Assembly: GCF_014841215.1 (NCBI RefSeq)
Contig: NZ_JACYTR010000019.1
Location: forward strand, 14,177-78,176
Direction: 5' to 3'
Length of the DNA stretch: 64,000 nt
Source: Pseudomarimonas arenosa
GTDB taxonomy: Bacteria; Pseudomonadota; Gammaproteobacteria; Xanthomonadales; Xanthomonadaceae
The translations under genes and the position numbers were made by a program. Shown here in pieces: positions 6,935 through 60,160 of the stretch. Each line of letters starts with the position of its first letter. The first letter of the stretch is position 1. The notes under the pieces were generated by a model, which made no database searches, had not been told where the DNA came from, and saw only the letters and a program-made list of their open reading frames with translations.

Positions 6935-6936
6935 AC

Positions 6937-39828: not shown

Positions 39829-40305
39829 TCAATTCTGTGCGGCACGCGGGCCGTCGAAAGCTTCGTGAATCAGCAGACTGCCGTGCTCATTGGCCAGGCT
39901 CTGATACACGACTGCAGGAACGCCGTAGGCCTGCACTCGGCCATCGCGCAATTCCGGATCATCGCAGCTGCGCAAGGCAACCCGACCACTGTGACCGGTC
40001 GGAAGCAGGGTGGCCGAGGGGGCAATCAGCTCCAGCTCGCCTTGGCTATCGCGGCCGATCAGCCACAGTCCAGCCGGCGGCTCGATGCCACGCGGGCAGA
40101 ACGCATCGCCGGCAATCACCCGCGACTCGCCGAACTGCGGCTGCAGTTCCCAATGCTGATCGAGTGCGTCCAGCGAGGCGGTGTAGTCGATGCCGGGCAC
40201 GTATTGCGGCAGCAGGGATTCGGGGGCTTGAGCTGACACGGTGCTGCTGCTCAGGCTCAGGGCCAGGGTTGCGGCGGTTATCAAGGAAGCAATCACGGTA
40301 CGCAT
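39829..40305 (-). CDS. Predicted secreted hypothetical protein (158 aa)
   Basis: Signal peptide MRTVIASLITAATLALSLSSSTVSAQA. No recognisable domain. Confidence 0.5.
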   Translation of the reverse strand: MRTVIASLITAATLALSLSSSTVSAQAPESLLPQYVPGIDYTASLDALDQHWELQPQFGESRVIAGDAFCPRGIEPPAGLWLIGRDSQGELELIAPSATLLPTGHSGRVALRSCDDPELRDGRVQAYGVPAVVYQSLANEHGSLLIHEAFDGPRAAQN

Positions 40306-40639
40306 CTTAGGTTCTCCGGGTCGCCAACAGTTGGCGGAAGTAGATTGCTACAGGCGATTATCGCCATGCAGTGGCGAATCGGACTCTGAAGGGGCGAATT
40401 CCGCCATGTTTGGCTGGCGTTTAGAAAGCCCGTCCCCCCAGTCGCCCAATGACGCGACGCGACGGGCCGCCTATCCTTGTGCAGCCAGTGTGAAGTTGTT
40501 TGCCGCCGTCGGCAGTCAGGGGAGCGGGGAGCCTGCCCAACCACGGCTGAATTCTGACTAGGCCAGAAGTCACAGGTGCCGGTGTCTGGCGTCCTGTCAT
40601 TAACTCAGGGTTTGCGCGCCGAGGCGCGAGGGGGAAGCG

Positions 40640-41275
40640 ATGGACCTGTTCTTGCAAATCGTTACGTCGTTTCCCACGGTGATCTTCACGGTGATTCTGG
40701 GTGTTGGGCTTTGCCTGATGCTGTTGACCATGCTGGGCATGGTCGATATCGAGGGACTGAACTTCGACATCGGCTCAGACGGCGATGGTGCCGGCGGCGT
40801 GTCGGCCTTGCTGATGAAGCTGGGCCTGGATGGCATGCCGCTGATGTTGATCGTGCTCGGCGTTGGTTTGATCGGTTTCGTTCTGAGCTTCCTGGCCGAT
40901 TATTGGTTCCTGCGAGAGGTCGAAGCCGACAACTTCAGGCTGCTGTGGATGGTTCTGGCTGTAGTGATTGCATTCTTCCTGTCATTGCCGCTGACCGGTC
41001 TGCTGCTGTTTCCGCTGAAGTCAGTATTCCGCGAGCAGCCGGTGATCGACAGCGTGTCCTTGCTCGGCAAGTTGGCCATCGTGCGTAGCCCCTTGGTCGA
41101 TGCCAAACAAGGAATGGCCAACCTGGATGACGGCGGTGCGGGCCTGATTCTTCAGGTGCGCAGTCGTGATCAGACCTTCGAGCGCGGTCAGCGCGTGGTG
41201 CTGGTTGAGTACATCGAGGCGAGCAACGCCTATTGGGTGATCGGCGAGCAATCGCTGGACCCCACGGACCACTGA
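40640..41275 (+). CDS. YqiJ/NfeD-like inner membrane protein (OB-fold C-terminus)
   Basis: N-terminal multi-TM region and C-terminal soluble beta-rich domain. Same size as E. coli YqiJ (about 210 aa). Directly upstream of a flotillin gene, as in yqiJK. Confidence 0.55.
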   Translation: MDLFLQIVTSFPTVIFTVILGVGLCLMLLTMLGMVDIEGLNFDIGSDGDGAGGVSALLMKLGLDGMPLMLIVLGVGLIGFVLSFLADYWFLREVEADNFRLLWMVLAVVIAFFLSLPLTGLLLFPLKSVFREQPVIDSVSLLGKLAIVRSPLVDAKQGMANLDDGGAGLILQVRSRDQTFERGQRVVLVEYIEASNAYWVIGEQSLDPTDH

Positions 41276-41334
41276 TCGAATTTCTTGTCGTTCAACGTTC
41301 TTAGTAGTTTCAGGCCGGCAAATCTGGCCCTTTA

Positions 41335-43389
41335 TTGGAGTCAAGCATGGACATGACCACTTTGATGCTCATCATTACCGTCGGCGGCGTGATCGTTGCC
41401 GGCGTGTTGAGTCTCTTTGCCATCCTGAAGATGTTCTACATCAAGGTGCCGCAGGGTACCGCGCTGATCGTCAACGATCTGACCGCCACGCCGAAGGTGC
41501 ATTTCACCGGTGCCCTGGTCTGGCCGGTGATCCACAAAAAGGAGTTCATGAAGATCTCCTTGATCACCCTGGAGGTCGATCGGCGCGGCAAGGATGGCCT
41601 GATCTGCCGCGACAACATGCGCGCCGATATCACCGTTGCCTTCTATCTGCGGGTGAATGAGACCCAGCAGGACGTGCTGAAGGTGGCCAAAGCCATCGGC
41701 GTCGATCGCGCCTCGGAAAAGAACGCGGTCAATGAACTGTTCAACGCCAAGTTCAGTGAGGCGCTGAAGACGGTCGGCAAGAAGATCGACTTCGTTGCCT
41801 TGTTCGAGAACCGGCAGGAATTCCGTGACCGCATCATCGAGGTGATCGGCAACGATTTGAACGGTTACATCCTGGAAGACGTGGCGATCGATTATCTGGA
41901 GCAGACGCCGAAGTCCTCGCTGGATCCGAACAATATTCTCGATGCCGAAGGCATTCGCAAGATCACCGAGCTCACCGCCACCCAGAACGTGGTGACCAAT
42001 GAGTTGGAGCGCAACAAGGAACTGGCGATCCAGAAGAAGAACGTCGAGACCAAGGAATCGATGCTGGCATTGGCGCGTCAGCAGGCCGATGCCGAAGCCA
42101 AGCAGCAGCGTGAGATCGCCACCATCCAGGCGCGCGAATCGGCCGAGACCCTGCGCGTGCAGGAAGAAGAGCGGCTGAAGGCCGAACAGGCGCGCATCGC
42201 CACCCAGGAACAGCTCGATATCCGTGAGCAGAATCGGATGCGTGAAGTTGAAGTGGCTGAGCAGAACCGCCAGCGCGCCGTGGTGATCGAGATCGAAAAG
42301 GTCGCCCGCGCCAAGGCACTGGAAGAAGTCGCCCGCGAACGCGAAGTCGAACTGCAGCGGATCGAGAAAGAGCGCGCCCTGGAAGAGCAGCGCAAGGAAA
42401 TTGCCAATGTCATCCGCGAGCGGGTGGTGGTCGAAAAATCGGTGGCAGTGGAAGAAGAGCGGATCAAGGAAGTGCGCGAAATCTCCGAAGCCGAGCGCCT
42501 GAAGCAGGTCACCATTCTTGATGCCCAGGCCAAGGCAGAGGAAGAGCTGGTTAAGCAGGTCAAGCAGGCCGAAGCCGACGAAGCCAAGGCCAAGCACAAG
42601 TCGGTCGAGATCACCATCCTGGCTCAGGCCGAACTGGAAGCCGCCGGCAAACAGGCCGAAGCCAAGCGCAAGCTGGCCGAAGGTATCGAGGCCGAGCGTG
42701 CCGCGCCGGGCCTGGCCGATGCGCGGGTGCGCGAAGTGACCGCGGCGGCGATGGAAAAGGAAGGTCTGGCCAAGGCCAAGGTGATCGCCGAGCAAATGGC
42801 GGCCGAGGCGCGCGGCGAGCAGGACAAAGGTGTGGCCCAGGCCAATGTGATCGAGGCGCAGGCCGAAGCGCGGCGCAAGGAAGGTCTGGCCGAGGCCAAG
42901 GTGCTGGAAGAAAAGCTGAGCGCGCAGGCGCGGGGCGAGGAACAGGTCGCGCTGACCAAGGCCAAGGCCACCCAGGAGGTCGGCAATGCCGAGGCGGCGG
43001 TGCTGCTGGCCAAGTTCGAAGCCGAGGCCAAGGGTCTGGCGGAGAAGTTCGGCTCGCTGGAAGCGCTCAGCGACAAGGCGCGCGCCCACGAAGAGTTCCG
43101 CATGCAGCTGGAAAAGACCTTCGAGCAGACCGTGCGCGGCATCGAGGCGAACGAAAAGATCGCCCGCGAACAGGCCGATGTGCTGGCCGCCGCGCTCAGC
43201 AAGGCCAAGGTCGACATCGTGTCCGGCGGCGGCGACTACTTCAACAGCCTGGCCCGCGGCATGGGCATGGGCAAGATGGTCGAGGGCGTGACCGGCTCCA
43301 GTCCGATCGTCGGTGACCTGCTGCAGCGCTTTCTGGGCAACACCCCGAAGAAGCCGGAAGCGCCGTCGGCTAACGATACCGAGCAGTAA
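41335..43389 (+). CDS. Flotillin/SPFH (band-7) family protein, YqiK-like
   Basis: N-terminal TM. SPFH domain. Long Ala/Glu/Lys/Arg coiled-coil region (EA-repeat-like) typical of flotillins. Confidence 0.85.
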   Translation: MESSMDMTTLMLIITVGGVIVAGVLSLFAILKMFYIKVPQGTALIVNDLTATPKVHFTGALVWPVIHKKEFMKISLITLEVDRRGKDGLICRDNMRADITVAFYLRVNETQQDVLKVAKAIGVDRASEKNAVNELFNAKFSEALKTVGKKIDFVALFENRQEFRDRIIEVIGNDLNGYILEDVAIDYLEQTPKSSLDPNNILDAEGIRKITELTATQNVVTNELERNKELAIQKKNVETKESMLALARQQADAEAKQQREIATIQARESAETLRVQEEERLKAEQARIATQEQLDIREQNRMREVEVAEQNRQRAVVIEIEKVARAKALEEVAREREVELQRIEKERALEEQRKEIANVIRERVVVEKSVAVEEERIKEVREISEAERLKQVTILDAQAKAEEELVKQVKQAEADEAKAKHKSVEITILAQAELEAAGKQAEAKRKLAEGIEAERAAPGLADARVREVTAAAMEKEGLAKAKVIAEQMAAEARGEQDKGVAQANVIEAQAEARRKEGLAEAKVLEEKLSAQARGEEQVALTKAKATQEVGNAEAAVLLAKFEAEAKGLAEKFGSLEALSDKARAHEEFRMQLEKTFEQTVRGIEANEKIAREQADVLAAALSKAKVDIVSGGGDYFNSLARGMGMGKMVEGVTGSSPIVGDLLQRFLGNTPKKPEAPSANDTEQ

Positions 43390-43397
43390 TGCTTAAA

Positions 43398-43425
43398 GCC
43401 CCTCTCCCCCGCCAGGGGGAGGGGC
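43398..43425. repeat. REP-like GC palindrome GCCCCTCTCCCCCGCCAGGGGGAGGGGC
   Basis: Imperfect 11 to 12-bp-stem hairpin in the flotillin/giant-gene intergenic region. The same core motif recurs within each unit of the 55988-56550 tandem array. Confidence 0.45.
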
Positions 43426-43465
43426 TAGAGCTTGAGCAAGTCCGGACCACGGAGTGCTACCCCGC

Positions 43466-46400
43466 ATGGCCAACAATGAGAAATCTGCAGCCACTGAACA
43501 GGTCGATACCGCGATCACCGATCAGGCGGTGGCCGAGGGTGGCGCCTATGAGGTTTTGCGCAAGCGACTGAGTGATCAAGGCAGTCAGCTGAAAGTAGCG
43601 GCCGAGGCGCTGAATGCTGAGCGGCTGGCAGCCTTCGGCAGCAGTGAGCTGAAGGTGATCGGCCGGCTGCGGGTGCGCACCGAACACAATTGCGTGCCGC
43701 GCGATCTGGTCCAGGTCGGGGAGTGTCTGCTGTTCGGCTACAACGTGTTCCTCGGGCTGAAAAAGGAAACCCAGGTCGACGACGTATTTGCCCTGTACAA
43801 ACTGGTTGAGGGGACAGAGGGTTTCGATGTCGAGCCGCAGGCGCTGAAGGGCAGTTTCCTCGATCAGGCCAGCTTCGTCGCCGATTTCAAGGAGCTGTAC
43901 GCCTACTACAAGAACACCCGGCTGCTGCAACTGGTACGCAAGGATGAGTGGCTGCTGGCCAGTTTCCAGATCGGCGATCGGATCAGTGATGTGCGGGTGT
44001 TCCGCTGGAGCGTCTCAGCCGATGGTCAAACTATTCGTTATGTGGACAACCGTGGCGAACGCGATATCGCCCTGCCACCGAACTACGACTTCGAGTGGAC
44101 CCGCTGCGGCCGTGAGCATGCGGTCGAGGGGCGTCATCCGCATCTGAATATTCTCGATACGGTATTCGTCGAAACCGTGGGTGGCGACCTCACGGTCAAG
44201 ATCGAGAACAACACCAATGATGGCCTGGGTATCTATCGCGAGCCGGTCGATGACCAGACCCAGAGTCTGGACGATGCCAAGGTTGATTTCGCCAAGGTCG
44301 GCAGCCTGATCTTGCTGCGCATCCTGCCCTACCGCGAAACCCAGTCGCGCTATCTGGCCTACAACACCCTGACCCGCGAAGTTCGGCGGATCGATGCCAT
44401 CGGTCAGGCCTGCGTGCAATTGCCGGAGGACCACGGCATCGTCTTTCCCGGCGGCTATCTGCTGCAGAACGGCGAATACCGCCAGTTCGAGCAGTCAATG
44501 GCTGGCATGCGCTTCAAGCGGATGATCCGCTCGCCCAATGGCGAGGACGTGCTGTACATCTTCTACGAGCCCGAGGACGGTCGCTTTGCCCTGTTCACCT
44601 ACAACCTGATCGAGCGCAAGCTGCAGCCACCGCTGTTCGGTCACGGTTATGCCCGCTATGACGATGGGCGGATCGTGTTGTTCAGCATGCAGGGCAGTGA
44701 GGCAACCCGCGTGCATCCGATGCAGATCTGGCAGACCGCCTTCTGCAGTGATGAGTTCGCCGCCCAGCAGCCGGCCAAGCAGGGCTTTGCCGGCCGCATC
44801 GGCAATGCCGAATTGGTGCGTGGTGTTTCCAATCTGCTCAATCTCTGCCGTGAGATTGAGGCGGAGAAGGTCTCCCAGGCGCGCTATGAGCGGCTGATCG
44901 CCGACGCCCGCAAGCTGTTCGATCTGCATCACTGGCTGGCCGAGTCGCACTGTGAACAGGCCGCTGCTGTGGTGCGCAGCATCGCCCAGTGCAGCGAGCT
45001 GGTGATCGACGAGTTCGTCAAGGTGGAGGCAATTCGCGCATCCGCCGAGCGCGCCTTGGCCGAGGCGCGTACCCTGCAATCGCAGCTCAAGCGCGAATGC
45101 CTGCCGGAACGCTGCGAGGCGATCGCCGATTTTGTCACCGCCCTTAACAGGCTGTCACGACAGCGCGGTCATCTGCTCAGTATTCGTGAGTTGCGCTATA
45201 TGGATGTGGCGGCCATCGATGCCATGGGCGGCGATCTACAGGCCTGGCATGACGAGCTGTCCAGGTCCACTGCCGCGTTTCTCGACCGGCCCGAAGCCCT
45301 GGCTGACCTCGCGGCGCAACTCGATGCTCAGGAGAAGCAGCTCGGCATGGCGGAGAACGCCGCCAAGTTGCGTGAGCTGGTCGAAGCGCTGAAGCAAAGC
45401 GCGGCCGATCTCGATCTGCTCAGCCAGCTGCTGGCCGGGTTGCCGGTGGATGACGCCGAACAGCGTACCCGCATCGTCGAGGCGATCTCGGCCCTGTATG
45501 CGCGGCTGAACCAGATCCGTGCCCGCGCCGAGGCCAAGCGCAAGCAGCTTGGCAGCGCCGAGGCGGTGGCCCAGTTCGGTGCCCAGTTCCATCTGTTCTC
45601 GCAATCGGTGTCGGCAGCTCTGGCCGATGCCCGCGACCCCGAGGCCTGCGACGATGCGTTGGCCAGGGTGTTGGTGCAGCTGGAAGGGCTTGAGGGCCAG
45701 TTCGGCGAACACGAGCAGTTCCTGCAGGACATCCTGGCCAAGCGCGAGGAAGTGCTGGAGGCGTTCGAGTCGCACAAGCAGACCTTGCTCGATGAACGTC
45801 AGCGCCGCGCCCAGGGCCTGCACGATGCCGCGGTGCGCATCATCGATGGTCTGCCGCGGCGAACCGAGAAGTTCAGTGGCGCTGATGAGCTGAACAGTTT
45901 CTTTGCCGGTGACGCCCTGATCCTCAAGCTGCGCGACCTGGTCGAGCGCCTGCGTGGCTTCAAAGACAGCGTCAAGGCCGACGATATCGAAGCGCGGCTG
46001 AAAGCCTGTCGCGACCAGGCCGCGCGTCGGCTGCGTGATGCCAGCGAGCTGTTCGAGGACGGTGGCAATCTGATCCGGCTGGGTCGGCACCGCTTCAGTG
46101 TCAACCGGCAGGAACTCGATCTCACCCTGATTCCACGCGGCGAGCGACTCTGCCTGCATCTCACCGGCACCGATTTCTTCCAGCCGATTCAGGCTGACCA
46201 GCTCGATTCGATGCGGCCCTTCTGGGAGGCCTCGCTGCCCTCGGAGTCGGCCGAGCTGTCGCGTGCCGAATACTTAGCTGGTGCTTTCCTCGAGGCGGCC
46301 GAGCGTGGCGAGGAGGGGCTCGATGCCGGTCTGCTCATTCCGGGCAAGGATCAGGCCTCGGCGCTGGAGCAAGCCTTGCGCAAGTTCGCTGCCGCGCGTT

Positions 46401-48652
46401 ATCGCGAAGGCTATGAGAAAGGCTTGCACGATCATGATGCAGCACGGATTCTGGCCGCCTGGGCGCCACTGCGACAAACCGCCGGCCTACTGCGTTTTGC
46501 GCCTGGCGCGCGCGCCCTGGCCATGCATGCCTGGAAGGCGCTGCGCGAGGGCATCGGCAAGCGCTGGCCGGAACGGGCGCGGGCGGCGGCCCGGCTGCGG
46601 GCACAGTTCGACGATCGAGCGGCCTGCGAACAATGGGTTAAGGAGATCGCCACCGACTTGCTGGCGCCTGCTGAAGCGCTGGATTTTGCCAAGGACCAAG
46701 CCCGGCAGGCAGCGGCCTACCTGTTCGAGGTGCTGGCCGAGCCGCATCCGCAGTTCGCCTTCAGTCGCCCCGCGCACGACCTGCGCGATGCCCTGCAAAG
46801 GGCTCTGGCCAATGATGATGGCTGGCGAAATCTGTTGCAGAGCGCCGCCGAACTGCAGGATTTGCCCAGGCTGCAACGCGAATTGATCCTCCATGCATTG
46901 AACGCCTTGTTGCGTCGTCAGCCCAAGGCCGGCGAGCCGCGCTATGTCGACGAGGCCGCAGCCCTGATTCTGCTCGCCGATCACTTGCCGAATCGTTTCA
47001 GCGAGGCCGACCTCAGTGTCGAGGTGCAGGGCTTGCTATCTGCGCATCAGCGCATTCAGGAAGGACGACTGCCAATTGCGGTGGATGACCTGGACGCACG
47101 ACTGGCCCACCACCGCCAGCACTATCTGCCGCAGCTGCAGCGTTTCCAGTCGATACGGCATGCCGAACTGGAAACGGCACGCGAACGCATGCGGCTGGGC
47201 GAATTCAAACCGCGGCCGCTGACCTCGTTCGTGCGCAATCGGCTTATTGATCAGGTCTACCTGCCGCTGATTGGCGACAACCTGGCCAAGCAGATGGGCA
47301 GTGTCGGCGAGGGCAAGCGCTCCGATCTGATGGGCCTGTTGATGCTGATCTCGCCGCCTGGCTACGGCAAGACCACCTTGATGGAGTACACCGCGCACCA
47401 GCTCGGTCTGATCTTCATGAAGATCAATGGGCCGTCGCTGGGTCATGAAGTGCGCTCGCTGGATCCGGCGCAGGCGCCCGATGCCAATGCCCGGCAGGAG
47501 CTGGAAAAGCTCAATCTGGCGCTGGAAATGGGCAATAACGTGATGCTGTATGTCGACGACATCCAGCACACCCATCCGGAGTTCCTGCAGAAGTTCATCT
47601 CGCTCTGCGATGCCACCCGCCGCATCGAAGGCGTGTACGGCGGCCGCACCAAGACCTATGACATGCGCGGCAAGAAGTTCTGCGTGGTGATGGCCGGCAA
47701 CCCGTATACCGAATCCGGCGACTTGTTCCGCATTCCCGACATGCTGGCCAACCGCGCCGACGTGTACAACCTGGGTGACGTGCTGGGCGGCATGCAGGAG
47801 GCCTTCCTGCTCAGCTATATCGAGAACAGTCTGACCTCGAGCCCGGTGCTGGCGCCGCTGGCCACCCGTGGCATCGAGGATCTGTACAAGCTGGTCGACA
47901 AGATTGCCGGCAAGGGTTTTTCTGCCAGCGCCTTGGCGCATAGCTATAGCGCCGCCGAACTCAGCGATATGGAGGCCGTGCTGAGTCGCCTGATGAAACT
48001 GCGTGATGTGGTGTTCAAGGTCAATCAGCAATACATCGCCAGTGCCGCCCAGGCCGAGGCCTACCGCACCGAGCCGGCATTCAAGCTGCAGGGCAGCTAC
48101 CGCAATATGAACAAGCTGGCGGAAAAGGTGTCGGCGGTGATGAATGAGGCCGAGCTCGATCAGTTGGTGCGTGATCACTATCTCGGTGAATCGCAGCTGC
48201 TCACCCATGGCGCCGAGGAGAATCTGCTCAAGCTCGGTGAGCTGCTCGGCACGCAAAAGGCTGAAGACAAGACGCGCTGGGAGCAGATCAAGGCCGACTT
48301 CCGCCGGCTGAAGGCGATCGGCGGCGCCGATTCTGACACCGGCACACGGGTGGTGGCCCAGCTGCACGATCTGGTTCAGGGGGTGAACTCGCTCAAGGCC
48401 AGCGAGCCGGTCGAAGCAGCGGCGAGTCCGCCCTGGTCGCACCTTTCCGATCTGCTGGAACGGATTGTCAACGAACAAACCTTGGCGCGTAACTTCAATC
48501 GCGATGCCGCCACCGACAGCGCCATGTTCTTGAGCGGTCTGCGCAATGCCCTGGAACTTGGCTTCAAGCCCCTGGTCGAGGCGGCCAAGACTCGCAGCGA
48601 ACAGCAGGATGTGTTGATCGAGTTGCTGAAGCGACTGACTAAGAAGCCGTGA
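43466..48652 (+). CDS. Giant (about 1728 aa) multidomain protein with a C-proximal MoxR/AAA_5-like P-loop ATPase module; function unknown
   Basis: Walker A LISPPGYGKTTL and Walker B VMLYVDDIQH. MoxR-like sensor stretch VVMAGNPYTESGDLFRIPDMLANRADVY, around residue 1290-1450. Preceded by about 1250 aa of mixed beta (N-terminal about 420 aa) and long alpha-helical/coiled-coil sequence. Confidence 0.7.
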   Translation: MANNEKSAATEQVDTAITDQAVAEGGAYEVLRKRLSDQGSQLKVAAEALNAERLAAFGSSELKVIGRLRVRTEHNCVPRDLVQVGECLLFGYNVFLGLKKETQVDDVFALYKLVEGTEGFDVEPQALKGSFLDQASFVADFKELYAYYKNTRLLQLVRKDEWLLASFQIGDRISDVRVFRWSVSADGQTIRYVDNRGERDIALPPNYDFEWTRCGREHAVEGRHPHLNILDTVFVETVGGDLTVKIENNTNDGLGIYREPVDDQTQSLDDAKVDFAKVGSLILLRILPYRETQSRYLAYNTLTREVRRIDAIGQACVQLPEDHGIVFPGGYLLQNGEYRQFEQSMAGMRFKRMIRSPNGEDVLYIFYEPEDGRFALFTYNLIERKLQPPLFGHGYARYDDGRIVLFSMQGSEATRVHPMQIWQTAFCSDEFAAQQPAKQGFAGRIGNAELVRGVSNLLNLCREIEAEKVSQARYERLIADARKLFDLHHWLAESHCEQAAAVVRSIAQCSELVIDEFVKVEAIRASAERALAEARTLQSQLKRECLPERCEAIADFVTALNRLSRQRGHLLSIRELRYMDVAAIDAMGGDLQAWHDELSRSTAAFLDRPEALADLAAQLDAQEKQLGMAENAAKLRELVEALKQSAADLDLLSQLLAGLPVDDAEQRTRIVEAISALYARLNQIRARAEAKRKQLGSAEAVAQFGAQFHLFSQSVSAALADARDPEACDDALARVLVQLEGLEGQFGEHEQFLQDILAKREEVLEAFESHKQTLLDERQRRAQGLHDAAVRIIDGLPRRTEKFSGADELNSFFAGDALILKLRDLVERLRGFKDSVKADDIEARLKACRDQAARRLRDASELFEDGGNLIRLGRHRFSVNRQELDLTLIPRGERLCLHLTGTDFFQPIQADQLDSMRPFWEASLPSESAELSRAEYLAGAFLEAAERGEEGLDAGLLIPGKDQASALEQALRKFAAARYREGYEKGLHDHDAARILAAWAPLRQTAGLLRFAPGARALAMHAWKALREGIGKRWPERARAAARLRAQFDDRAACEQWVKEIATDLLAPAEALDFAKDQARQAAAYLFEVLAEPHPQFAFSRPAHDLRDALQRALANDDGWRNLLQSAAELQDLPRLQRELILHALNALLRRQPKAGEPRYVDEAAALILLADHLPNRFSEADLSVEVQGLLSAHQRIQEGRLPIAVDDLDARLAHHRQHYLPQLQRFQSIRHAELETARERMRLGEFKPRPLTSFVRNRLIDQVYLPLIGDNLAKQMGSVGEGKRSDLMGLLMLISPPGYGKTTLMEYTAHQLGLIFMKINGPSLGHEVRSLDPAQAPDANARQELEKLNLALEMGNNVMLYVDDIQHTHPEFLQKFISLCDATRRIEGVYGGRTKTYDMRGKKFCVVMAGNPYTESGDLFRIPDMLANRADVYNLGDVLGGMQEAFLLSYIENSLTSSPVLAPLATRGIEDLYKLVDKIAGKGFSASALAHSYSAAELSDMEAVLSRLMKLRDVVFKVNQQYIASAAQAEAYRTEPAFKLQGSYRNMNKLAEKVSAVMNEAELDQLVRDHYLGESQLLTHGAEENLLKLGELLGTQKAEDKTRWEQIKADFRRLKAIGGADSDTGTRVVAQLHDLVQGVNSLKASEPVEAAASPPWSHLSDLLERIVNEQTLARNFNRDAATDSAMFLSGLRNALELGFKPLVEAAKTRSEQQDVLIELLKRLTKKP

Positions 48653-48818
48653 TTGGTGATTCGGGATTCGGGATTCGGGCGGCGCGCCGCAAGGTGGCTC
48701 GAAGCCATCGATTTTGGCGCGGACAGCAGGCGCGTCCCGGCCTCGCCCCCAAGCTAGCCCGTCCATGGCACAATCGGAGTGTGGCTGGGATTGGCCGGGT
48801 ACCGACTGGGCGCACTCG

Positions 48819-49853
48819 ATGAAGACCACACCGCACTTGCTTGACGAGCTGGTCAAACTGACCTCGATCCGCGATGCCGAGCTGCTCGAATACAGCCTGC
48901 TGCGCACTATTCAGGAGATCCTCTCGCCGACCGTGCTGTCGCTGTTCCGGCTCAGCGCCAACGGGCAGCCGTGCTATCAGATGGTCTGCGATGCTGAGCA
49001 CGGGCCGCGGGTGGTGGCCGAGCCGGTGGTCAGCGCGCGCACCCTGGAGGTGGCGGCGGAATGCATGGGATTGCGCCAGGGCGTGCGGCGCCGACTGGAT
49101 GACGGCCAGGAGCTGTCGGTGTATCCGGTGGTCGAGCTGCGCGGCTTTACCACCTACCTGGAAGTGGTCGACCGGTTTGGCGACGCCAAGGAGGACGCCC
49201 GACTGATCGATGGCTTCCTGCGCTTCTATGAAAACTACTGTGGCCTGCTCGACTACTCACAGCGTGATCAGTTGACCGGCCTGATGAATCGCAAGACCTT
49301 CGATGAGAGCGTGTTCAAACTGTTCAGCAGCGGTGATCGTTTTCAACTCGACGCCGCAAGCCCACGGGCCAAGGACGATCGTCGAATCGGCGCGCATCGC
49401 GGCGAGTTCTGGCTCGGCATGGTCGATATCGATCACTTCAAGCGCATCAACGATTCGTTTGGTCACTTGTATGGCGATGAGGTCTTGCTGCTGGCCTCGC
49501 AGGTAATGCAGCGCGGTTTTCGCGATACCGACCTGCTCTTTCGCTTCGGTGGCGAGGAGTTTGTCATCATCACCCAGAACGTCGATCGCGACGGCGCCCT
49601 GCATGTGTTCGAGCGTCTGCGGCAATCGATCGAATCATTCCGCTTTCCGCAGGTAGGTCAGGTCACCATCAGTATCGGGCTGGTGCAACTGGTGCCGGGC
49701 AAGCTGACGCCGATCCTGCTCGATCAGGCCGACAAGGCGCTGTACTACGCCAAGCAGCATGGTCGCAATCAGGTGGCTGTCTATCAGGATCTGGTCGAGC
49801 GCGGTGACATCGACGAAACCCAGCACACCCAGGGTTCGGTCGACCTGTTCTAG
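48819..49853 (+). CDS. Diguanylate cyclase (GGDEF domain) with an N-terminal sensory domain
   Basis: GGEEF active-site motif (RFGGEEFVII). RxxD I-site-like context. About 150-aa N-terminal putative GAF-like domain. Confidence 0.85.
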   Translation: MKTTPHLLDELVKLTSIRDAELLEYSLLRTIQEILSPTVLSLFRLSANGQPCYQMVCDAEHGPRVVAEPVVSARTLEVAAECMGLRQGVRRRLDDGQELSVYPVVELRGFTTYLEVVDRFGDAKEDARLIDGFLRFYENYCGLLDYSQRDQLTGLMNRKTFDESVFKLFSSGDRFQLDAASPRAKDDRRIGAHRGEFWLGMVDIDHFKRINDSFGHLYGDEVLLLASQVMQRGFRDTDLLFRFGGEEFVIITQNVDRDGALHVFERLRQSIESFRFPQVGQVTISIGLVQLVPGKLTPILLDQADKALYYAKQHGRNQVAVYQDLVERGDIDETQHTQGSVDLF

Positions 49854-52114: not shown

Positions 52115-54508
52115 ATGGACAGCTCGCCGGCCCGACCTGCGCAGCCGATCGGTCTGCTGCTGTCGGTTGCCTGTATCGCAGCGGCCGCCCTGGCCTATCA
52201 AATCGTGCTGATGCGCTTCTATGCCGTGCTGCATTGGCAGTGGTTCGCAGCGATGATCGTCAGCCTGGCCCTGCTCGGTCATGGTTTGAGCGGCAGCCTG
52301 CTGGCCTTGCGCAGCGCCGCCTTCGGGCGCTGTTTTGACTGGCTGTACCCGTGGTTGGCGGTGGCCTTTGCGCTGAGCATGCCGCTCGCCTTTGCGATCG
52401 CCCAGCGCTGGCCGTTCAACGGCCTGGAGCTGATCTGGGACCCGGCTCAGCTGGCTTGGTTGGCGCTGAGTTATCTCTGCCTTAGCCTGCCGTTTGCCTG
52501 CGCCGCGGCCTGCTTCGGGTTGGCCTTTATTCGCTATGGTGCGGCGATCCCGCGGCTGTATGCCGCCGACCTGTTCGGCGCTGGTCTCGGCGCCCTGGGC
52601 GTGCTGTGGCTGATGCAGGCCTTGCCCCTACGCCACTGGCTGCCTGCGCTCGGGCTGCTGGCGGTGTTCGGCGCCTGGCTGGGCAGTGCCGGCCTGTCGA
52701 TCGCGCGGCGCAGCAGCCTGTTGGCGCTGGGTCTGCTGCTCCTGCCGCCATCGTGGACCGCGGTGGAACCCAATCCCTACAAGGGGCTGAGCGCCACGTT
52801 GCGACTGCCGGGCGCCGAGCGGCTCGAGCGTCAAGCCGGGCCGCTCGGTGTACTGGATCTGCTGGCCAGTCCCGAGGTGCCGCTGCGTCAGGTGGCCGGC
52901 CTGTCGATGCTGGCTGACCGCGAGCCGGTGGCTCAGCTGGGCCTGTTCATTGATGGCGAGGGGCCGAGTCCGATCAGTCAGGTGGTCGATGTCGATCGAC
53001 TGGGCTACCTGGAGCAAACCACCGCCGCCTTGCCGTATCAGTTACTCAGCGCGCCCAGCGTATTGATCCTCGGCGCAGGCGGCGGCGATGCCGGCTGGCA
53101 GGCCTTACGCGGCGGTGCACGCTCGCTGCAGCTGGTGGAACCCAATGCTCAGTTGGCGGCCTGGCTGGATACGCCTGGCTCGCCGGCTTACTCGGCGCTG
53201 ATCGCTGACCTGCGAGTGCAGCGCCGGGTGGCTGATCCGCGTGCCGTGCTCGATCGGGCCGAGCGGCGCTACGATCTGATCGTGTTGCCGCCGCCCGATA
53301 GTCCGATCGGCGCTGGCGGCGGGGTGCAGGCGGCCTCGGACACCTTTCTTTACACCATCGAGGCGCTGCGCTCGGCCTGGCATGGGCTGCAACCGAACGG
53401 CATGATCAGTATCAGCCGTTGGGAGCAAAGCCCGCCGCGGGCCAGTCTGAAGCTGATCGCCACTGCCGTGGCAGCGTTGCGCGATCTCGGTGTCAGCGAT
53501 CCAGCGGCTCATCTGCTGCTGATCCGCGATTGGCAGACCAGCGTACTGCTGATCGGGCGTCGGCCCTTCAGCGCCGAGCAGCAGGCCGCGGCACAATCGT
53601 TTTGCCGCCGCTACGCCTTCGAGACGGTTCATCTGGCCGGTCTGGACCTGTCTGATCTGCAATCGAACGATAGGCTAAGGGAGGCGGTGCGGGCTGTGCT
53701 GGGCGCAGATGCCGAGCGGTTCATCGCCGAGTATGCGTTCGATATTCGCCCGGCCAAGGATGAGCGGCCGTTCTTTCACAACTACTTTCGCTGGCAGACC
53801 CTGCCGGTACTATGGCGGCTGCGCGCCCAGGGCGGCGCGACCCTGCTCGATTCGGGCTATCTGTTGGTGCTGGCGGGCCTGGTCCAGGCCAGCCTGCTGG
53901 CCGCATTGCTGATCTTGCTGCCACTGCGCTGGTTGCCGCGCGCCGCCCGTGCATCGACCTCGGCACTGCGCCGCTGGCCGGCCGCCGCGTACTTCTTCGC
54001 CCTGGGCCTCGGCTTCTTATTCTTCGAGATCGCCGCCCTGTCGCGCTACACGCTGTATCTTGGTCAGCCGCTGTGGTCGGCCTCCCTGGTTCTGGCCGGG
54101 CTGTTGGGGTTTGCCGGTGTGGGCAGTGCCACTGCCCAACGTTGGACGACCCGACCGATGGCGCGGCGTATCGCGGCGTTAAGTGCCGCCGTTGCCATCC
54201 TGGCGTTCGAGTGGCTGCATCCGGCCTGGTTTGCCCTCAGCGCGAACTGGCCGGTGTGGGCGCGCGCGCTCAGCGGTGGCCTGTTGCTGGCGCCCTGCGC
54301 CTTTCTGCTCGGCCTGCCGTTTCCGCTCGGCCTCAGCCGCCTCGCCACGCATGCCCCGGCCCTGGTGCCCTGGGCCTGGGGCATCAATGGCGTGGCCTCG
54401 GTGATCAGTGCCCTGCTGGCCGTGGTGCTGGCCATGGCCTGGGGCTATTCGGTGATCATGCTGATTGCCGCTGGCTTGTATGTGCTGGCGGCGTGGTCGC
54501 GGTTTTGA
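52115..54508 (+). CDS. Polytopic membrane protein with a central spermidine-synthase-like (aminopropyltransferase/methyltransferase-fold) domain
   Basis: About 797 aa. Multi-TM N- and C-terminal blocks flank a soluble region resembling the spermine/spermidine synthase fold (VLILGAGGGD ... DLIVLPPPDSP). Confidence 0.5.
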   Translation: MDSSPARPAQPIGLLLSVACIAAAALAYQIVLMRFYAVLHWQWFAAMIVSLALLGHGLSGSLLALRSAAFGRCFDWLYPWLAVAFALSMPLAFAIAQRWPFNGLELIWDPAQLAWLALSYLCLSLPFACAAACFGLAFIRYGAAIPRLYAADLFGAGLGALGVLWLMQALPLRHWLPALGLLAVFGAWLGSAGLSIARRSSLLALGLLLLPPSWTAVEPNPYKGLSATLRLPGAERLERQAGPLGVLDLLASPEVPLRQVAGLSMLADREPVAQLGLFIDGEGPSPISQVVDVDRLGYLEQTTAALPYQLLSAPSVLILGAGGGDAGWQALRGGARSLQLVEPNAQLAAWLDTPGSPAYSALIADLRVQRRVADPRAVLDRAERRYDLIVLPPPDSPIGAGGGVQAASDTFLYTIEALRSAWHGLQPNGMISISRWEQSPPRASLKLIATAVAALRDLGVSDPAAHLLLIRDWQTSVLLIGRRPFSAEQQAAAQSFCRRYAFETVHLAGLDLSDLQSNDRLREAVRAVLGADAERFIAEYAFDIRPAKDERPFFHNYFRWQTLPVLWRLRAQGGATLLDSGYLLVLAGLVQASLLAALLILLPLRWLPRAARASTSALRRWPAAAYFFALGLGFLFFEIAALSRYTLYLGQPLWSASLVLAGLLGFAGVGSATAQRWTTRPMARRIAALSAAVAILAFEWLHPAWFALSANWPVWARALSGGLLLAPCAFLLGLPFPLGLSRLATHAPALVPWAWGINGVASVISALLAVVLAMAWGYSVIMLIAAGLYVLAAWSRF

Positions 54509-56592: not shown

Positions 56593-57966
56593 TCAGCACG
56601 AATCCCCCGCCAGGGCGGAGGGCCTACAACGAGGTGTTTGGTTGAGTCGCAGCCAGGCCCCCAGGCAATGCAGCAACCAGCCGCGGATGTAGTCGCAGGC
56701 CGGGCGGCCGCGGGCGATGACTTCGTGGTGGCAGCCGCCGCCGCAAAGATAGCGGGCCCAGCAGCTTGAACATGGACTTTGCGCGTGGACATGACGTTGG
56801 CGCAGCCAGTTCGCCTGCTTGCCACGATCGATGCCATCCTCGATATCGCCAAGCACGGCGCTGCTATCACCGACAAAGCGATGACAGGCGGCCAACTGGC
56901 CCTCGGCATCCACGCCGAGATAGCCGGCGCCGGCGCCGCAGGGGTAGGGGCGGTGGGTGCCGCGGCCGAGTTCGCGCAGGGCGTTCATCAAATTGGCAAA
57001 GGCATAACGTCGACCTTGGGCGAGCTGTTGCTCGGCGTGCTCGGCGCAGGCGATCATCTGGCCCAGCAGCACACGCAGATCGTCGGCGCCCATTTCCATC
57101 TGGCCGTTCGGCGCATGCAGCATCGGTGAGTAGCCGACGCTGTGAAAGCCGAGGCCGAGCATCGCATCCAGTCCCTCGGGGGTGGGCAGATTGTGCGGTG
57201 TCACCGTCACCCGCGCTGACACCTGCATCTCGCCCTGCCGCGCCAGCAAGGGCTCGATGCGTTGCAGGATGCGCGCGTAGCTGCCTTGGCCATTCGGAAA
57301 CGGCCGTAGACGGTCGTGCTCGGCGGCGTCGCCGTCCAGGCTGATAGTGACGGCGAATCGATGTCGCTGGAACAGCTCGATATCGTCATCGCGGATCAGG
57401 GTGCCATTGCTGGTGATGGAAAAGCTGAGCGCGATGCCGGCCGCCGCAGCACGTTCGGCGGCATAAGCCGTGGTAGCGTGCAGGACGCTGCGATTGGCCA
57501 ACGGCTCGCCGCCCATAAAGGCGAGATTGGCCTTGCCCAGTGGCGCGGCGTCGGTCAGCAAGCGGTCGACCGAACGCTGCGCCACCTGCAGAGACATCGC
57601 TTTCGGCGCTGCCCCAAAACCGCCTTGCTGGGCATAGCAGTACTGGCAGCCGAGATTGCAGCGCTGCGCCACTGCCAGGCTGAGGGCGTGCAGGGGCGGT
57701 TCTTCCGGTGCGCGATCGTCGATTGCCCGACGCGGGTCGACGCCCCAGCGACTTAACAAAGTGCTGCGCTCTATGTCGTCGCCTTGGTGCCAATCCTGGG
57801 CCGCCTGATCGGCGATATCGAACAGCTGCGAGGCATTGCAGACCAGCAGCTGCGCGCCATCGGGGCCCTGAAACAGATGGCCATGGGCCGACTGTGGTCG
57901 ACTGGCCGCGATCGCGCGCTCGGCCCGCGAGCGCGCGGCCAGGCCGTGCTCAGGGCTCAGGGGCAT
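56593..57966 (-). CDS. Radical SAM enzyme with a C-terminal SPASM domain (peptide/protein-modifying maturase family; anSME/PqqE-like)
   Basis: CNLGCQYC (CxxxCxxC) cluster. Auxiliary-cluster Cys patterns near the C-terminus (CGAG ... C ... CSSCWARYLCGGGCHH). About 110-aa N-terminal extension before the radical-SAM core. Confidence 0.85.
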   Translation of the reverse strand: MPLSPEHGLAARSRAERAIAASRPQSAHGHLFQGPDGAQLLVCNASQLFDIADQAAQDWHQGDDIERSTLLSRWGVDPRRAIDDRAPEEPPLHALSLAVAQRCNLGCQYCYAQQGGFGAAPKAMSLQVAQRSVDRLLTDAAPLGKANLAFMGGEPLANRSVLHATTAYAAERAAAAGIALSFSITSNGTLIRDDDIELFQRHRFAVTISLDGDAAEHDRLRPFPNGQGSYARILQRIEPLLARQGEMQVSARVTVTPHNLPTPEGLDAMLGLGFHSVGYSPMLHAPNGQMEMGADDLRVLLGQMIACAEHAEQQLAQGRRYAFANLMNALRELGRGTHRPYPCGAGAGYLGVDAEGQLAACHRFVGDSSAVLGDIEDGIDRGKQANWLRQRHVHAQSPCSSCWARYLCGGGCHHEVIARGRPACDYIRGWLLHCLGAWLRLNQTPRCRPSALAGDSC

Positions 57967-60160
57967 CGCGGCCGCCGATCTGGAATTTCAGCACCTCTTC
58001 CCAGCGCGCGAACAGGTCGGCGTAATCGATCAGGCGCTGATCCTGATAATCGTCGATCACATACTCGCCATCGCGTACCTTGCTCATCCAGTTGTCGCCG
58101 CGACTGCCGTTTTCGGCCGGTTCCAGGTTGATGTAGTCGGGCCGGCTCGAAGCCCAGTAGTAGCAGACGCATTCGCGAAAGTCGTTCTGCCACGGCGAGC
58201 ACAGGCCGCGGGTCAATTCGCCGGGTTCGGCGATCGCATCGCTGATCAAGCCCGAGTCGGGTTCGAAAAAGTTCCGAACTTCGAGTTCCACCGTAATGGT
58301 TTTCTGATGGGTCGGCTTCAGCTCGTGCGGCGCCACCTCGGCGCTAAATTTGCACGGCACCTTCTGCCCGGCCTTTTGCAGGATCAGGGCAAAGGTGTTC
58401 GACCATTCCATGGTGAAGGGCGAGTAGGCCTCATCGCCGGTGCCATCGGCCGAGGGGCCATGGGCCATTGCCACCGTTGGATGGCCATCGACCTCCAGCA
58501 GTCGATGATGTAGCAGCTGCTCCAGGCCCGGGTCGGCCTGCACCACGTAGTTGTTGTGCTCGACCAGGGTGATGCCGCACAGCACCCGACGCCAGGCGCT
58601 GCGGAAATCGAGTTCCAGGCCGGGGCAGCAATTGCCCACCGAGGAGCTGACCACGCTGACGAAAGAGTTGAACTCGCCCTGATACAGCAATTGCGCACTG
58701 CGATTGCGCGGACTTAGCGCGGCGGCTTTGGGTGCTGCGTCGTCATCGAACAGGGTCCACTCGCCGGCGCGTTGCAGGGTGTTCAGTTGGCGCCGGGTCA
58801 GGGCCAGGTAATTGGTATCGGCGCCCGACATCAGGGCCGGCATCTTGCGTCGGCCCTGATCGCTGAGGTCACCGGTGGCATCGGGCGAGCGCATCAGGCG
58901 CGAGAACCAGGCCGGCGTGCCGCTCTGCATGGTCGCCATCAGCTGCTGGTGCAAAGCCAGAATCGCATAGGTATCGACCGCATGCGGCGCCATCACCGGT
59001 GCCAACGGACGCGGATAATCGGAGGAATCATCGGCCGGCATGGTGTCGGCGCGATTCGGTCGGCCGCGGGTGGTGTCGCCATTGAGCACCGCGATGTTCA
59101 TGAACTGCACGGTCTGGAATGCGCCCCGCACGATCGACTCGGCCTCGGCCAGCGGAATCCGCGCGCCCTGCGGGTGTTCCGGGCCTTCCAGTGCCTGCAG
59201 CAGATCGTCGGCCAGGCGACGTACGAACTGCGCATCAGGGGCAAAGATCGGCGGCGCTGAACAGACCCTGCCGCGGGCGCTGTGCACCACACAGTCGTTC
59301 TTATCGACCAGTTCCACCTCGACGTAGCCGTCGCAGATATCATCGAACATGCCGCGGCTGGGTTGCGGGTCGTCGGTGAAATTGAAGAACGGCGCCTTGC
59401 CATAGGCGGCGTACAGGCCCTGCGACAAGGTGTTCAGGGTTTCATCGTCATCGCGGTAGCCATGCCAGCTGCCCTTCTGGCTGTCGTAGAACACCCGCTC
59501 TGGCGGCACTTCGTAGCGCGCGGTGTGCCAGACCGGCGGGATCTTCAGTTCGCGCCGTTGCTCCTCGGTCAGCGGCGTACTGCCGTACACCGCGCCATTG
59601 CTGGGCCAGAAGCGCAGGCGCAGCTGCGGGTGCTCGGCATTCGGTTCGATCAGCTGCAGGGCGCCAAACGGCAGTCGGTACTGTTCGCCCTGGAGGAAAT
59701 TGGCGCATTCGCCGAGCAGGGCCTGTGGCGCATGATCATCGCCCGCGGCGCTCACTTCGGCCCGGATCTTGTCGTTTGGATCATTGGTGCGGCGGAACAG
59801 TTTGTTATTGCCGACCACGGCCCGCCAGCGCAGGCTAAGGCCGGCGGCTTTGAGGTCGGCCTCGGTCAGTGGGCGCAACTGCTGATCGTCGCCGACCCGC
59901 GCATACAGCTCGATAAATGGCGCCACCGGTCGAATCTTGCCGTCCTGCTTGAACGCGATCGGCTGCTCGTTCGGCGCCAGTTCGCCAATGATCTTGCCGC
60001 TGGCGCGATCGGTAAGCAGGGTGCGATCACGGCACAGTCGCGGCAGTTCCAGCGGCTTGTCCGGATCGGGTATCAGGCGGAAGTTGTCCAGCGGCGATTC
60101 CGCCGAACCAACCCGGGCGATGGTCAGTGGTGGCAACAGGCGCAGATCGTCGATCTTCAT
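57950..60160 (-). CDS. Large (about 736 aa) protein of unknown function, operonic with ferritin-like and rSAM/SPASM genes
   Basis: Start MKIDDLRLL at 60160, preceded by AGGAG, overlaps the upstream gene's stop (ATGA). No motif I can assign. Several conserved-looking Cys/Trp clusters (GNCCPGLELDF; CSPWQNDFRECVCYYWASS). Confidence 0.6.
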   Translation of the reverse strand: MKIDDLRLLPPLTIARVGSAESPLDNFRLIPDPDKPLELPRLCRDRTLLTDRASGKIIGELAPNEQPIAFKQDGKIRPVAPFIELYARVGDDQQLRPLTEADLKAAGLSLRWRAVVGNNKLFRRTNDPNDKIRAEVSAAGDDHAPQALLGECANFLQGEQYRLPFGALQLIEPNAEHPQLRLRFWPSNGAVYGSTPLTEEQRRELKIPPVWHTARYEVPPERVFYDSQKGSWHGYRDDDETLNTLSQGLYAAYGKAPFFNFTDDPQPSRGMFDDICDGYVEVELVDKNDCVVHSARGRVCSAPPIFAPDAQFVRRLADDLLQALEGPEHPQGARIPLAEAESIVRGAFQTVQFMNIAVLNGDTTRGRPNRADTMPADDSSDYPRPLAPVMAPHAVDTYAILALHQQLMATMQSGTPAWFSRLMRSPDATGDLSDQGRRKMPALMSGADTNYLALTRRQLNTLQRAGEWTLFDDDAAPKAAALSPRNRSAQLLYQGEFNSFVSVVSSSVGNCCPGLELDFRSAWRRVLCGITLVEHNNYVVQADPGLEQLLHHRLLEVDGHPTVAMAHGPSADGTGDEAYSPFTMEWSNTFALILQKAGQKVPCKFSAEVAPHELKPTHQKTITVELEVRNFFEPDSGLISDAIAEPGELTRGLCSPWQNDFRECVCYYWASSRPDYINLEPAENGSRGDNWMSKVRDGEYVIDDYQDQRLIDYADLFARWEEVLKFQIGGRDAPEP

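Follow-up and report, generated by a model that had tools for sequence, protein, structure and literature searches.

We analysed a window of 64,000 nucleotides (nt) from Pseudomarimonas arenosa (RefSeq assembly GCF_014841215.1, contig NZ_JACYTR010000019.1, positions 14,177 to 78,176 of the forward strand) and focused on a giant gene at positions 43466-48652, whose product carries one AAA+ ATPase module in its C-terminal part. Unless stated otherwise all positions refer to the window. An initial annotation, made from the letters alone, had described the gene as about 1250 amino acids (aa) of unassigned sequence fused upstream of a MoxR/AAA_5-like ATPase. It overlooked the decisive context, which is given by the two genes immediately upstream. 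The giant gene is the third gene of a conserved unit encoding an NfeD/YqiJ-like protein with three transmembrane (TM) segments, a membrane-anchored flotillin-like SPFH protein and the ATPase. The unit consists of the following features:

40640-41275, + strand: NfeD/YqiJ-like membrane protein of 211 aa, orthologue of BacC (PA3730) of Pseudomonas aeruginosa, 41% identical to PA3730 over the full length
41347-43389, + strand: flotillin-like SPFH scaffold protein of 680 aa, orthologue of BacD (PA3729/PaFlo3), 74% identical to PA3729 over 683 aa
43398-43425, + strand: GC-rich stem-loop GCCCCTCTCCCCC-GCCA-GGGGGAGGGGC, 9 nt past the stop codon of the flotillin-like gene
43466-48652, + strand: giant ATPase gene, orthologue of BacE (PA3728), 1728 aa, predicted to be soluble

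The three-gene unit and its counterpart in P. aeruginosa

The giant gene is real. On the + strand an open reading frame (ORF) at 43454-48652 encloses it, and its start is the ATG at 43466, which is preceded by GGAG and yields the product of 1728 aa. The opposite strand also holds long ORFs, e.g. 47036-48907, which are the usual by-product of a G+C content of 63%. The giant protein has a counterpart of 100% identity at NCBI, which is named 'DNA repair ATPase [Pseudomarimonas arenosa]' (Lysobacteraceae). Judged by its sequence it is the P. arenosa orthologue of P. aeruginosa BacE (PA3728/PA14_16190) and belongs to the DUF3686-DUF7902-AAA+ family. The two proteins have 1728 and 1746 aa, respectively, all of their regions align with an identity of 62% overall and 89% in the AAA+ core, and they carry the same Pfam domains. 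The novelty implied at first therefore has to be given up, as NCBI already holds the protein and the P. aeruginosa orthologue has been named BacE (PMC10948618). The family is widespread and was catalogued earlier, and the giant ORF is an ordinary orthologue.

The homologues of the giant protein form more than 6000 clusters (90% identity) at E ≤1e-5. The P. aeruginosa cluster, built at the same 90%, matches 96% of the giant protein with 62% identity and stands for 3222 member sequences. Among the 240 listed homologues nearly all had DUF3686, DUF7902 and AAA+ together in their precomputed domain annotation. A search starting from a myxobacterial homologue (47% identity) returned the same architecture throughout the Myxococcota and in one actinobacterial metagenome-assembled genome (MAG). 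A pattern scan in which each GTDB species was represented by a single genome revealed relatives of the giant protein in at least 567 stretches.

The two partners carry TM segments (three and one, respectively), and a Kyte-Doolittle scan of the giant ATPase revealed no hydrophobic segments at all. For the NfeD/YqiJ-like protein the same scan showed three hydrophobic segments, which are followed by a soluble C-terminal domain; Pfam returned no match at threshold for this protein (40640-41275). In the flotillin-like protein a single TM helix at the N-terminus precedes a globular domain and a long coiled-coil region rich in Glu, Ala and Lys. The protein was not detected by the Band_7 and Flot Pfam models even at E 1, and neither phmmer with its single sequence nor a profile of 29 sequences gave a match in the PDB.

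In P. aeruginosa the order of the genes is DUF2170, PspA, the 213-aa gene (PA3730), the 688-aa gene (PA3729), the 1746-aa gene and a PLD-family gene. The name bac cluster for PA3729-PA3732 goes back to Mace et al. (2008), who also remarked on the resemblance of PA3731 to PspA (PMC2587700). With reverse transcription PCR Wallart et al. (2024) demonstrated that PA14_16140 to PA14_16200 are one operon, with bacABCDEF as a single transcript, and renamed PA14_16190 bacE and PA14_16200 bacF; in the bacA mutant BacB through BacF were up 6- to 13-fold and BacE 8.9-fold (PMC10948618). The genes PA3728-PA3732 were induced together by phage infection in all infected samples (PMC12041424) and rose together in a stress proteome (PMC13637947). 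PA14_16190 is also among the RsmA-regulated genes (PMC8855297). Co-transcription and co-induction of bacE with the psp-like genes are thus established for P. aeruginosa.

This type of operon is already known. Ravi et al. (2024) described both the operon and the ATPase fusion, with a PLD gene sometimes present, and proposed a role in membrane dynamics. They also described abbreviated operons without PspA, which are reduced to the flotillin and YqiJ/YuaF proteins, at times joined by the ATPase (PMC11237479). [quoted passage not shown] The gene set in the window is exactly the one described by Ravi et al., abbreviated forms included, and we found nothing material that differs. Compared to bacABCDEF, the 'biofilm-associated cluster' of P. 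aeruginosa, the upstream pair BacC (NfeD-like) and BacD (flotillin-like) is the same, but homologues of bacA (DUF2170), bacB (PspA) and bacF (PLD) are missing from the window and a GGDEF gene follows the ATPase gene instead. A tblastn search of the 64-kb window with the P. aeruginosa PspA, DUF2170 and PLD proteins found no homologue. The unit is an 'abbreviated' bacABCDEF or PspA-flotillin operon without the DUF2170 chaperone-like (CesT/Tir-like) gene, PspA (PspA/IM30) and PLD. Upstream of the three genes there is an AraC-type regulator together with a 158-aa ORF on the other strand. A scan of 40200-49000 for sigma-70 promoters and terminators gave no more sites than shuffled sequence, and upstream of 40640 no convincing sigma-54 site was seen by eye.

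Predicted architecture of the giant ATPase

We used two AlphaFold models, both derived from an alignment of 93 sequences. The first covers aa 1-1200 with a mean predicted local distance difference test (pLDDT) score of 85.7 and the second covers aa 1151-1728 with a mean of 81.3. All conservation figures refer to the 93 aligned homologues. The models show a predicted layout of a helix, a seven-bladed propeller, helical bundles, a small beta domain, one MoxR-like AAA+ module and a helical tail:

43478-43636, + strand: N-terminal long helix, aa 5-57 (AlphaFold; low confidence for the first ~22 residues)
43652-44734, + strand: beta-propeller, aa 63-423, core of DUF3686 (AlphaFold and Foldseek)
44750-46051, + strand: helical bundles, aa 429-862, enclosing DUF7902 (AlphaFold)
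46070-46189, + strand: small beta domain, aa 869-908 (AlphaFold and alignment columns)
46262-46975, + strand: second helical region, aa 933-1170 (AlphaFold; mean conservation 0.55, below that of the first helical region)
47321-47800, + strand: AAA+ core, aa 1286-1445 (AlphaFold, conservation, Foldseek and AAA_5)
47801-48649, + strand: lid plus C-terminal helical region, aa 1446-1728 (conservation is poor over the last ~120 aa, where the model confidence drops as well)

The N-terminal region can no longer be called unassigned. Pfam places DUF3686 (PF12458) at aa 42-489 with 669.7 bits (E 2.1e-201, profile positions 2-448 of 448) and DUF7902 (PF25472) at aa 610-694 (nt 45293-45547, E 6e-22), and both are still domains of unknown function. 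The initial annotation had described the first 420 aa or so as beta-rich and the remainder as helical. The model of aa 1-1200 agrees with this description, with strands at aa 63-423 and helices at aa 429-862 and 933-1170. In the propeller model ~28 strands are grouped as about seven four-stranded blades and the pLDDT is mostly above 90. Its Foldseek matches were a nucleoporin chain, Elp1, Ski8, prolyl oligopeptidase, YncE and PON1, all of which are propeller proteins; the combination of AlphaFold and Foldseek that had been suggested for this part of the protein hence points to a seven-bladed beta-propeller. The helices had also been described as repeats. We rejected this at the sequence level, as a profile-profile comparison of the helical segments with hhalign revealed no internal repeats (probabilities ≤2%). 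The small beta domain carries the motif G-R-H-R-F-x-V-N-x-Q-x-L-D-L-T, in which G873 and F877 are invariant (n = 93) and conservation reaches 90% or more at most of the remaining positions.

The motifs quoted for the ATPase were all present. Walker A (PPGYGKTTL) occupies aa 1297-1305 (nt 47354-47380), Walker B (LYVDDIQH) aa 1361-1368 (nt 47546-47569) and GNPYTESGDLFRIPDMLANR aa 1411-1430 (nt 47696-47755), the latter running from the sensor-1 residue N1412 to the candidate arginine finger R1430. The AAA+ core is the best-conserved region of the giant protein, with a mean column conservation of 0.87 and 86 of its 160 positions invariant. GYGKTT, D1364-D1365, N1412-P1413, R1430 and a G-S-Y-R motif in the lid and C-terminal region (aa 1543-1546, nt 48092-48103) were unchanged in 93 of 93 sequences. 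The conservation of the core and the invariant motifs indicate that the ATPase is under strong purifying selection. By its resemblance to the G-x-S-x-R motif of MoxR we take G-S-Y-R to be a candidate sensor 2. The Walker B motif has D-D (nt 47555-47560) where D-E is the usual form, and this is the case for all 93 family members. Walker B motifs of the D-D type are more typical of STAND NTPases.

The assignment of the ATPase to the MoxR/AAA_5 type is narrowly favoured by fold and is less firm by sequence. The C-terminal model contains a single AAA+ alpha/beta core with a predicted beta-hairpin ahead of the sensor-1 strand (pre-sensor-1 hairpin, placed between the Walker motifs and GNPYTESGDLFRIPDMLANR), followed by the lid and further helices; at the position of the helix-2 insert it has just a loop with a short helix. 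The top Foldseek matches of this model were NorQ (E 2.3e-6) and CbbQ (E 1e-5), with RuvB narrowly behind (E 1.1e-5). The Pfam scores were marginal. AAA-type matches were weak and restricted to aa 1292-1415, with PF00004 confined to the P-loop part, and AAA_5 spans the AAA+ domain at 21.4 bits for the whole protein (cut-off 22) compared to 24.4 bits for the C-terminal fragment. A scan against NCBIfam gave P-loop noise only. When we searched the PDB sequences with the single giant protein and with the 93-sequence family profile, the Walker A stretch alone matched (p97, NVL and RuvB), which leaves the family without a solved relative.

Members of the MoxR family (NorQ, CbbQ, RavA) thus provide the closest solved folds by a narrow margin. 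In common with them the giant protein has a single AAA+ module with a predicted pre-sensor-1 hairpin, an N-P sensor 1 followed by a conserved arginine, and the set of Walker A, Walker B and candidate arginine finger. Unlike the members of that family it has N-terminal and C-terminal extensions of 1250 and ~280 aa, a D-D Walker B and no VWA partner; moreover AAA_3 does not match, AAA_5 reaches the threshold only and the sequence profiles stop at the P-loop. The statement that there is no VWA gene held up, as we found no VWA domain in the window neighbours scanned or among the genes called in the loci of P. aeruginosa, Nanopelagicales and Sorangium.

The searches also bear on the name under which the databases list the protein. 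'DNA repair' appears in the Pfam description of DUF3686 ("ATPase involved in DNA repair"), in the NCBI product name and in one paper that repeats the annotation (PMC8855297), and in P. aeruginosa RecJ lies three genes downstream. However, the Pfam, NCBIfam, PDB sequence and fold searches returned no nuclease, helicase, SMC or DNA-binding domain, and the sequence similarity to RuvB is confined to ~40 residues around the P-loop. The N-terminal region did not turn out to be a known repair family of the SMC/Rad50 type either, and 'DNA repair' is only the name of a DUF. The database name is probably wrong.

Near-obligate linkage to flotillin-like and NfeD-like genes

To describe the neighbourhood of the giant gene across genomes we compared the best 80 loci, all from different species, among the at least 567 stretches. 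Their giant proteins are 47-64% identical to the one in the window and the loci stem from gamma- and beta-proteobacteria, Myxococcota, one zetaproteobacterium and one MAG labelled Clostridia. The linkage was calculated relative to the number of loci with enough flanking DNA (at least 3.2 kb upstream in the case of the NfeD-like gene):

Flotillin-like gene, upstream on the same strand: 73 of 73 loci
NfeD/YqiJ-like gene, upstream on the same strand: 71 of 71 loci
PspA: 35 of 68 loci
DUF2170: 35 of 68 loci
PLD gene, downstream: 16 of 80 loci

The linkage to the flotillin-like and NfeD-like genes is near-obligate; a single exception is taken up in the next section. The gene order is constant across the gamma- and beta-proteobacteria and the Myxococcota, and the flotillin-like and NfeD-like pair is retained in the actinobacterial MAG as well. 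Outside Pseudomonas the proximity of RecJ and YaeQ is not conserved. In two loci further genes have been inserted secondarily between the flotillin-like gene and the giant gene. At L011 (3609-7001) the insertion holds an NYN-domain gene and an ORF without assignment, and at L043 (4968-7001) two tandem PDDEXK_2 (Rpn-type) genes.

Another recurring characteristic is the hairpin between the two genes. The initial annotation had reported a REP-like (repetitive extragenic palindrome-like) hairpin upstream of the giant gene. The hairpin itself is real: the 86-nt stretch that contains it has a minimum free energy of −40.5 kcal/mol (z = −3.1). The repetitive sense of the label was not borne out, as there is no second copy within the window with 3 mismatches permitted. 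The hairpin is not followed by a T-run and a consensus scan gave no terminator call. Across 75 intergenic regions 41% contained a 45-nt hairpin of ≤−25 kcal/mol, compared to 8% of the control windows placed inside the giant gene. The recurring hairpins follow right after the stop codon of the flotillin-like gene and share this position, while their sequences are unrelated to each other. A similar stem (CCCCTCTCCC/GGGAGAGGGG) occurs in an Aquimonas MAG, which was the closest relative in the sample. In Myxococcota the flotillin-like and the giant gene nearly abut and the hairpin is absent. Since read-through occurs in P. aeruginosa, we infer that the hairpin likely acts by partial attenuation or by stabilisation of the 3' end, which would hold the scaffold protein in excess over the ATPase.

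Downstream of the giant gene the next gene (48714-49853, + strand) encodes a GGDEF diguanylate cyclase, with its true start perhaps at the ATG at 48766. With this gene as the tblastn query, weak matches (31-44% identity) turned up in just 5 of the 80 loci; in three cases they lay either downstream in the same orientation (L005, L061) or inside the locus. The cyclase gene therefore does not belong to the conserved neighbourhood. It deserves some mention in view of the link between the P. aeruginosa cluster and biofilm formation. Directly past the giant stop codon (48651-48679) GATTCGG is repeated three times in tandem (48658-48678) after a degenerate copy, GATTGGT.

Further away the window contains a type I restriction-modification system at 3282-10823 (+ strand), with HsdR at 3282-5693, HsdS at 5486-6934 and HsdM at 6937-8865. 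A GHKL-type (HATPase_c_3) protein of 653 aa is encoded at 8862-10823 (+ strand) and its start overlaps the HsdM stop. The stretch of HsdRSM and GHKL genes is probably a small defence island. Across 10-14 kb of the window the G+C content falls to 0.55-0.58. Two ORFs of 797 aa each, 52115-54508 (+ strand) and 57950-60343 (− strand), have no Pfam match and are putative genes; around the former the G+C content is 67% and the AT skew strongly negative.

A possible role in remodelling membrane scaffolds

We propose that the giant protein is a cytoplasmic AAA+ remodeller of a membrane scaffold made of the flotillin-like protein (and PspA). Counting its identity and this general role together, we consider the proposal slightly better supported than an even chance would imply. 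In the proposed mechanism the soluble ATPase would oligomerise via its AAA+ module, as MoxR-type ATPases do. The propeller and the helical scaffold would then dock it onto the cytoplasmic face of the flotillin-like assembly, where ATP hydrolysis would assemble, open or dismantle the scaffold, plus PspA polymers where these are present, in envelope stress. The stem-loop would probably lower or buffer the expression of the ATPase relative to the flotillin-like scaffold. Taken alone, the specific remodelling step is tentative, and we would place it between doubtful and fairly possible. The near-obligate linkage, the co-regulation in P. aeruginosa, the conserved ATPase motifs and the occurrence of a soluble protein beside two membrane partners make the remodeller idea compatible with the data.

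By analogy such a role would parallel that of Vps4 for ESCRT-III, or that of FtsH toward HflK/C cages. PspA is a relative of ESCRT-III, and flotillin and HflK/C are SPFH proteins. In each of these systems an AAA+ motor is genetically tied to a membrane-scaffold polymer, so the likeness is one of role. The giant protein differs from Vps4 and FtsH in that it belongs to another AAA+ clade, not the classical one, and has no MIT domain, protease domain or TM anchor. A MoxR-like motor on a scaffold of propeller and helical bundles might also be seen as loosely reminiscent of eukaryotic coat and nucleoporin proteins. According to a review bacteria appear to lack an ATPase of the Vps4 type (PMC7619361). 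That BacE-type proteins are the missing ATP-driven remodeller of bacterial membrane scaffolds, i.e. a functional analogue of Vps4 that docks on SPFH cages, and on PspA polymers where present, and opens or dismantles them, is a bolder suggestion and we regard it as doubtful.

Several points weigh against the remodeller proposal. Deletion of PaFlo3 lowered biofilm formation by only ~20% (PMC13086221) and a PA3728 transposon mutant grew normally and served as a neutral control, and consequently there is no phenotype to anchor the mechanism. Our literature search found no paper testing the BacE-type ATPase itself, and no experiment in the literature ties ATPases of this type physically or functionally to the flotillin-like protein. 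A hexamer is assumed from the predicted fold only. The D-D Walker B, as read from the motif, may make hydrolysis slow or regulatory. The SPFH label of the flotillin-like protein is taken from two studies (PMC13086221, PMC11237479) and from the 74% identity to PaFlo3, and the profile searches were negative. Finally, the giant gene of Sorangium sp. So ce233 (locus L083, 8001-13613) has neither a flotillin-like nor an NfeD-like gene within 8 kb, which makes it the sole such locus we saw. Its neighbours are a divergent gene upstream for a 978-aa DUF4215/PA14 repeat protein and a FIST-domain gene downstream.

There are three other possible explanations for the function of the giant protein. In the first the ATPase would act as a maturation chaperone of the MoxR type. 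Its remodelling would be directed at one specific client complex, e.g. a membrane enzyme, the flotillin assembly would be a concentrating platform only, and the propeller and helical region would stand in for the missing VWA adaptor (compare NorQ/NorD, CbbQ/CbbO and RavA/ViaA). NorQ and CbbQ are the best structural matches, and the region with the NP...G...P...R motif fits the MoxR type, as does the marginal AAA_5 match. With no VWA gene nearby an adaptor in cis is plausible, and SPFH proteins are widely seen as scaffolds for other proteins (PMC13086221). On the other hand a conserved client candidate is missing, as only the NfeD-like and flotillin-like genes are constant and PspA, DUF2170 and PLD vary, and there is no match to AAA_3, the Pfam family of MoxR proper. 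We therefore consider a chaperone of this kind unlikely.

The second explanation is a conflict or immune module in which the propeller would sense a phage or toxin signal and the ATPase would trigger a response at the membrane, with PLD as the effector where it is present. This would agree with the rise of PA3728-PA3732 in all phage-infected samples (PMC12041424), although a general envelope-stress (Psp-type) response would lead one to expect the same induction. The PLD-family gene found downstream in 16 of the 80 loci also fits, and the hhhhDD Walker B recalls the STAND NTPases, for which we also obtained a weak Pfam match (nSTAND_NTPase5, E 0.024). MoxR ATPases and beta-propellers recur in bacterial conflict systems, and the MoxR-vWA ternary systems described by Kaur et al. 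(2020) likewise combine a MoxR-type ATPase with a beta-propeller (PMC7159879). However, those systems have a separate vWA protein, variable effectors and a patchy distribution, whereas the giant protein unites propeller and ATPase in one chain and its gene lies next to those for flotillin and NfeD; a VWA component and variable effector domains are absent. The gene order is unchanged across gamma- and beta-proteobacteria and Myxococcota, and with 3222 members in one P. aeruginosa cluster the gene looks like a core gene and not like part of a patchy defence island. PADLOC returned only IetA (E 0.0055) over 26 residues of the P-loop and no match for the neighbours. We thus judge a conflict module to be improbable.

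The third explanation, a DNA-repair ATPase, is the least credible by far and highly improbable, as the constant neighbours are membrane proteins, the RecJ and YaeQ neighbourhood is not kept outside Pseudomonas and the name came with no repair domain.

Beyond the published description of the operon our analysis adds the blade count of the propeller, the assignment of a MoxR-like fold, the D-D Walker B and the failed tests of MoxR membership (no VWA, no AAA_3 match). It further adds the linkage statistics with their one exception, the recurring intercistronic hairpin and the finding that the name 'DNA repair' is unsupported. The BacE family is widespread and highly conserved, and it is the only ATPase constantly linked to the bacterial flotillin-NfeD pair and often to PspA. 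If the remodeller proposal is true, the opening of SPFH cages is a question that BacE-type ATPases could answer, and their activity would account for the recycling of these membrane scaffolds by bacteria during envelope stress.

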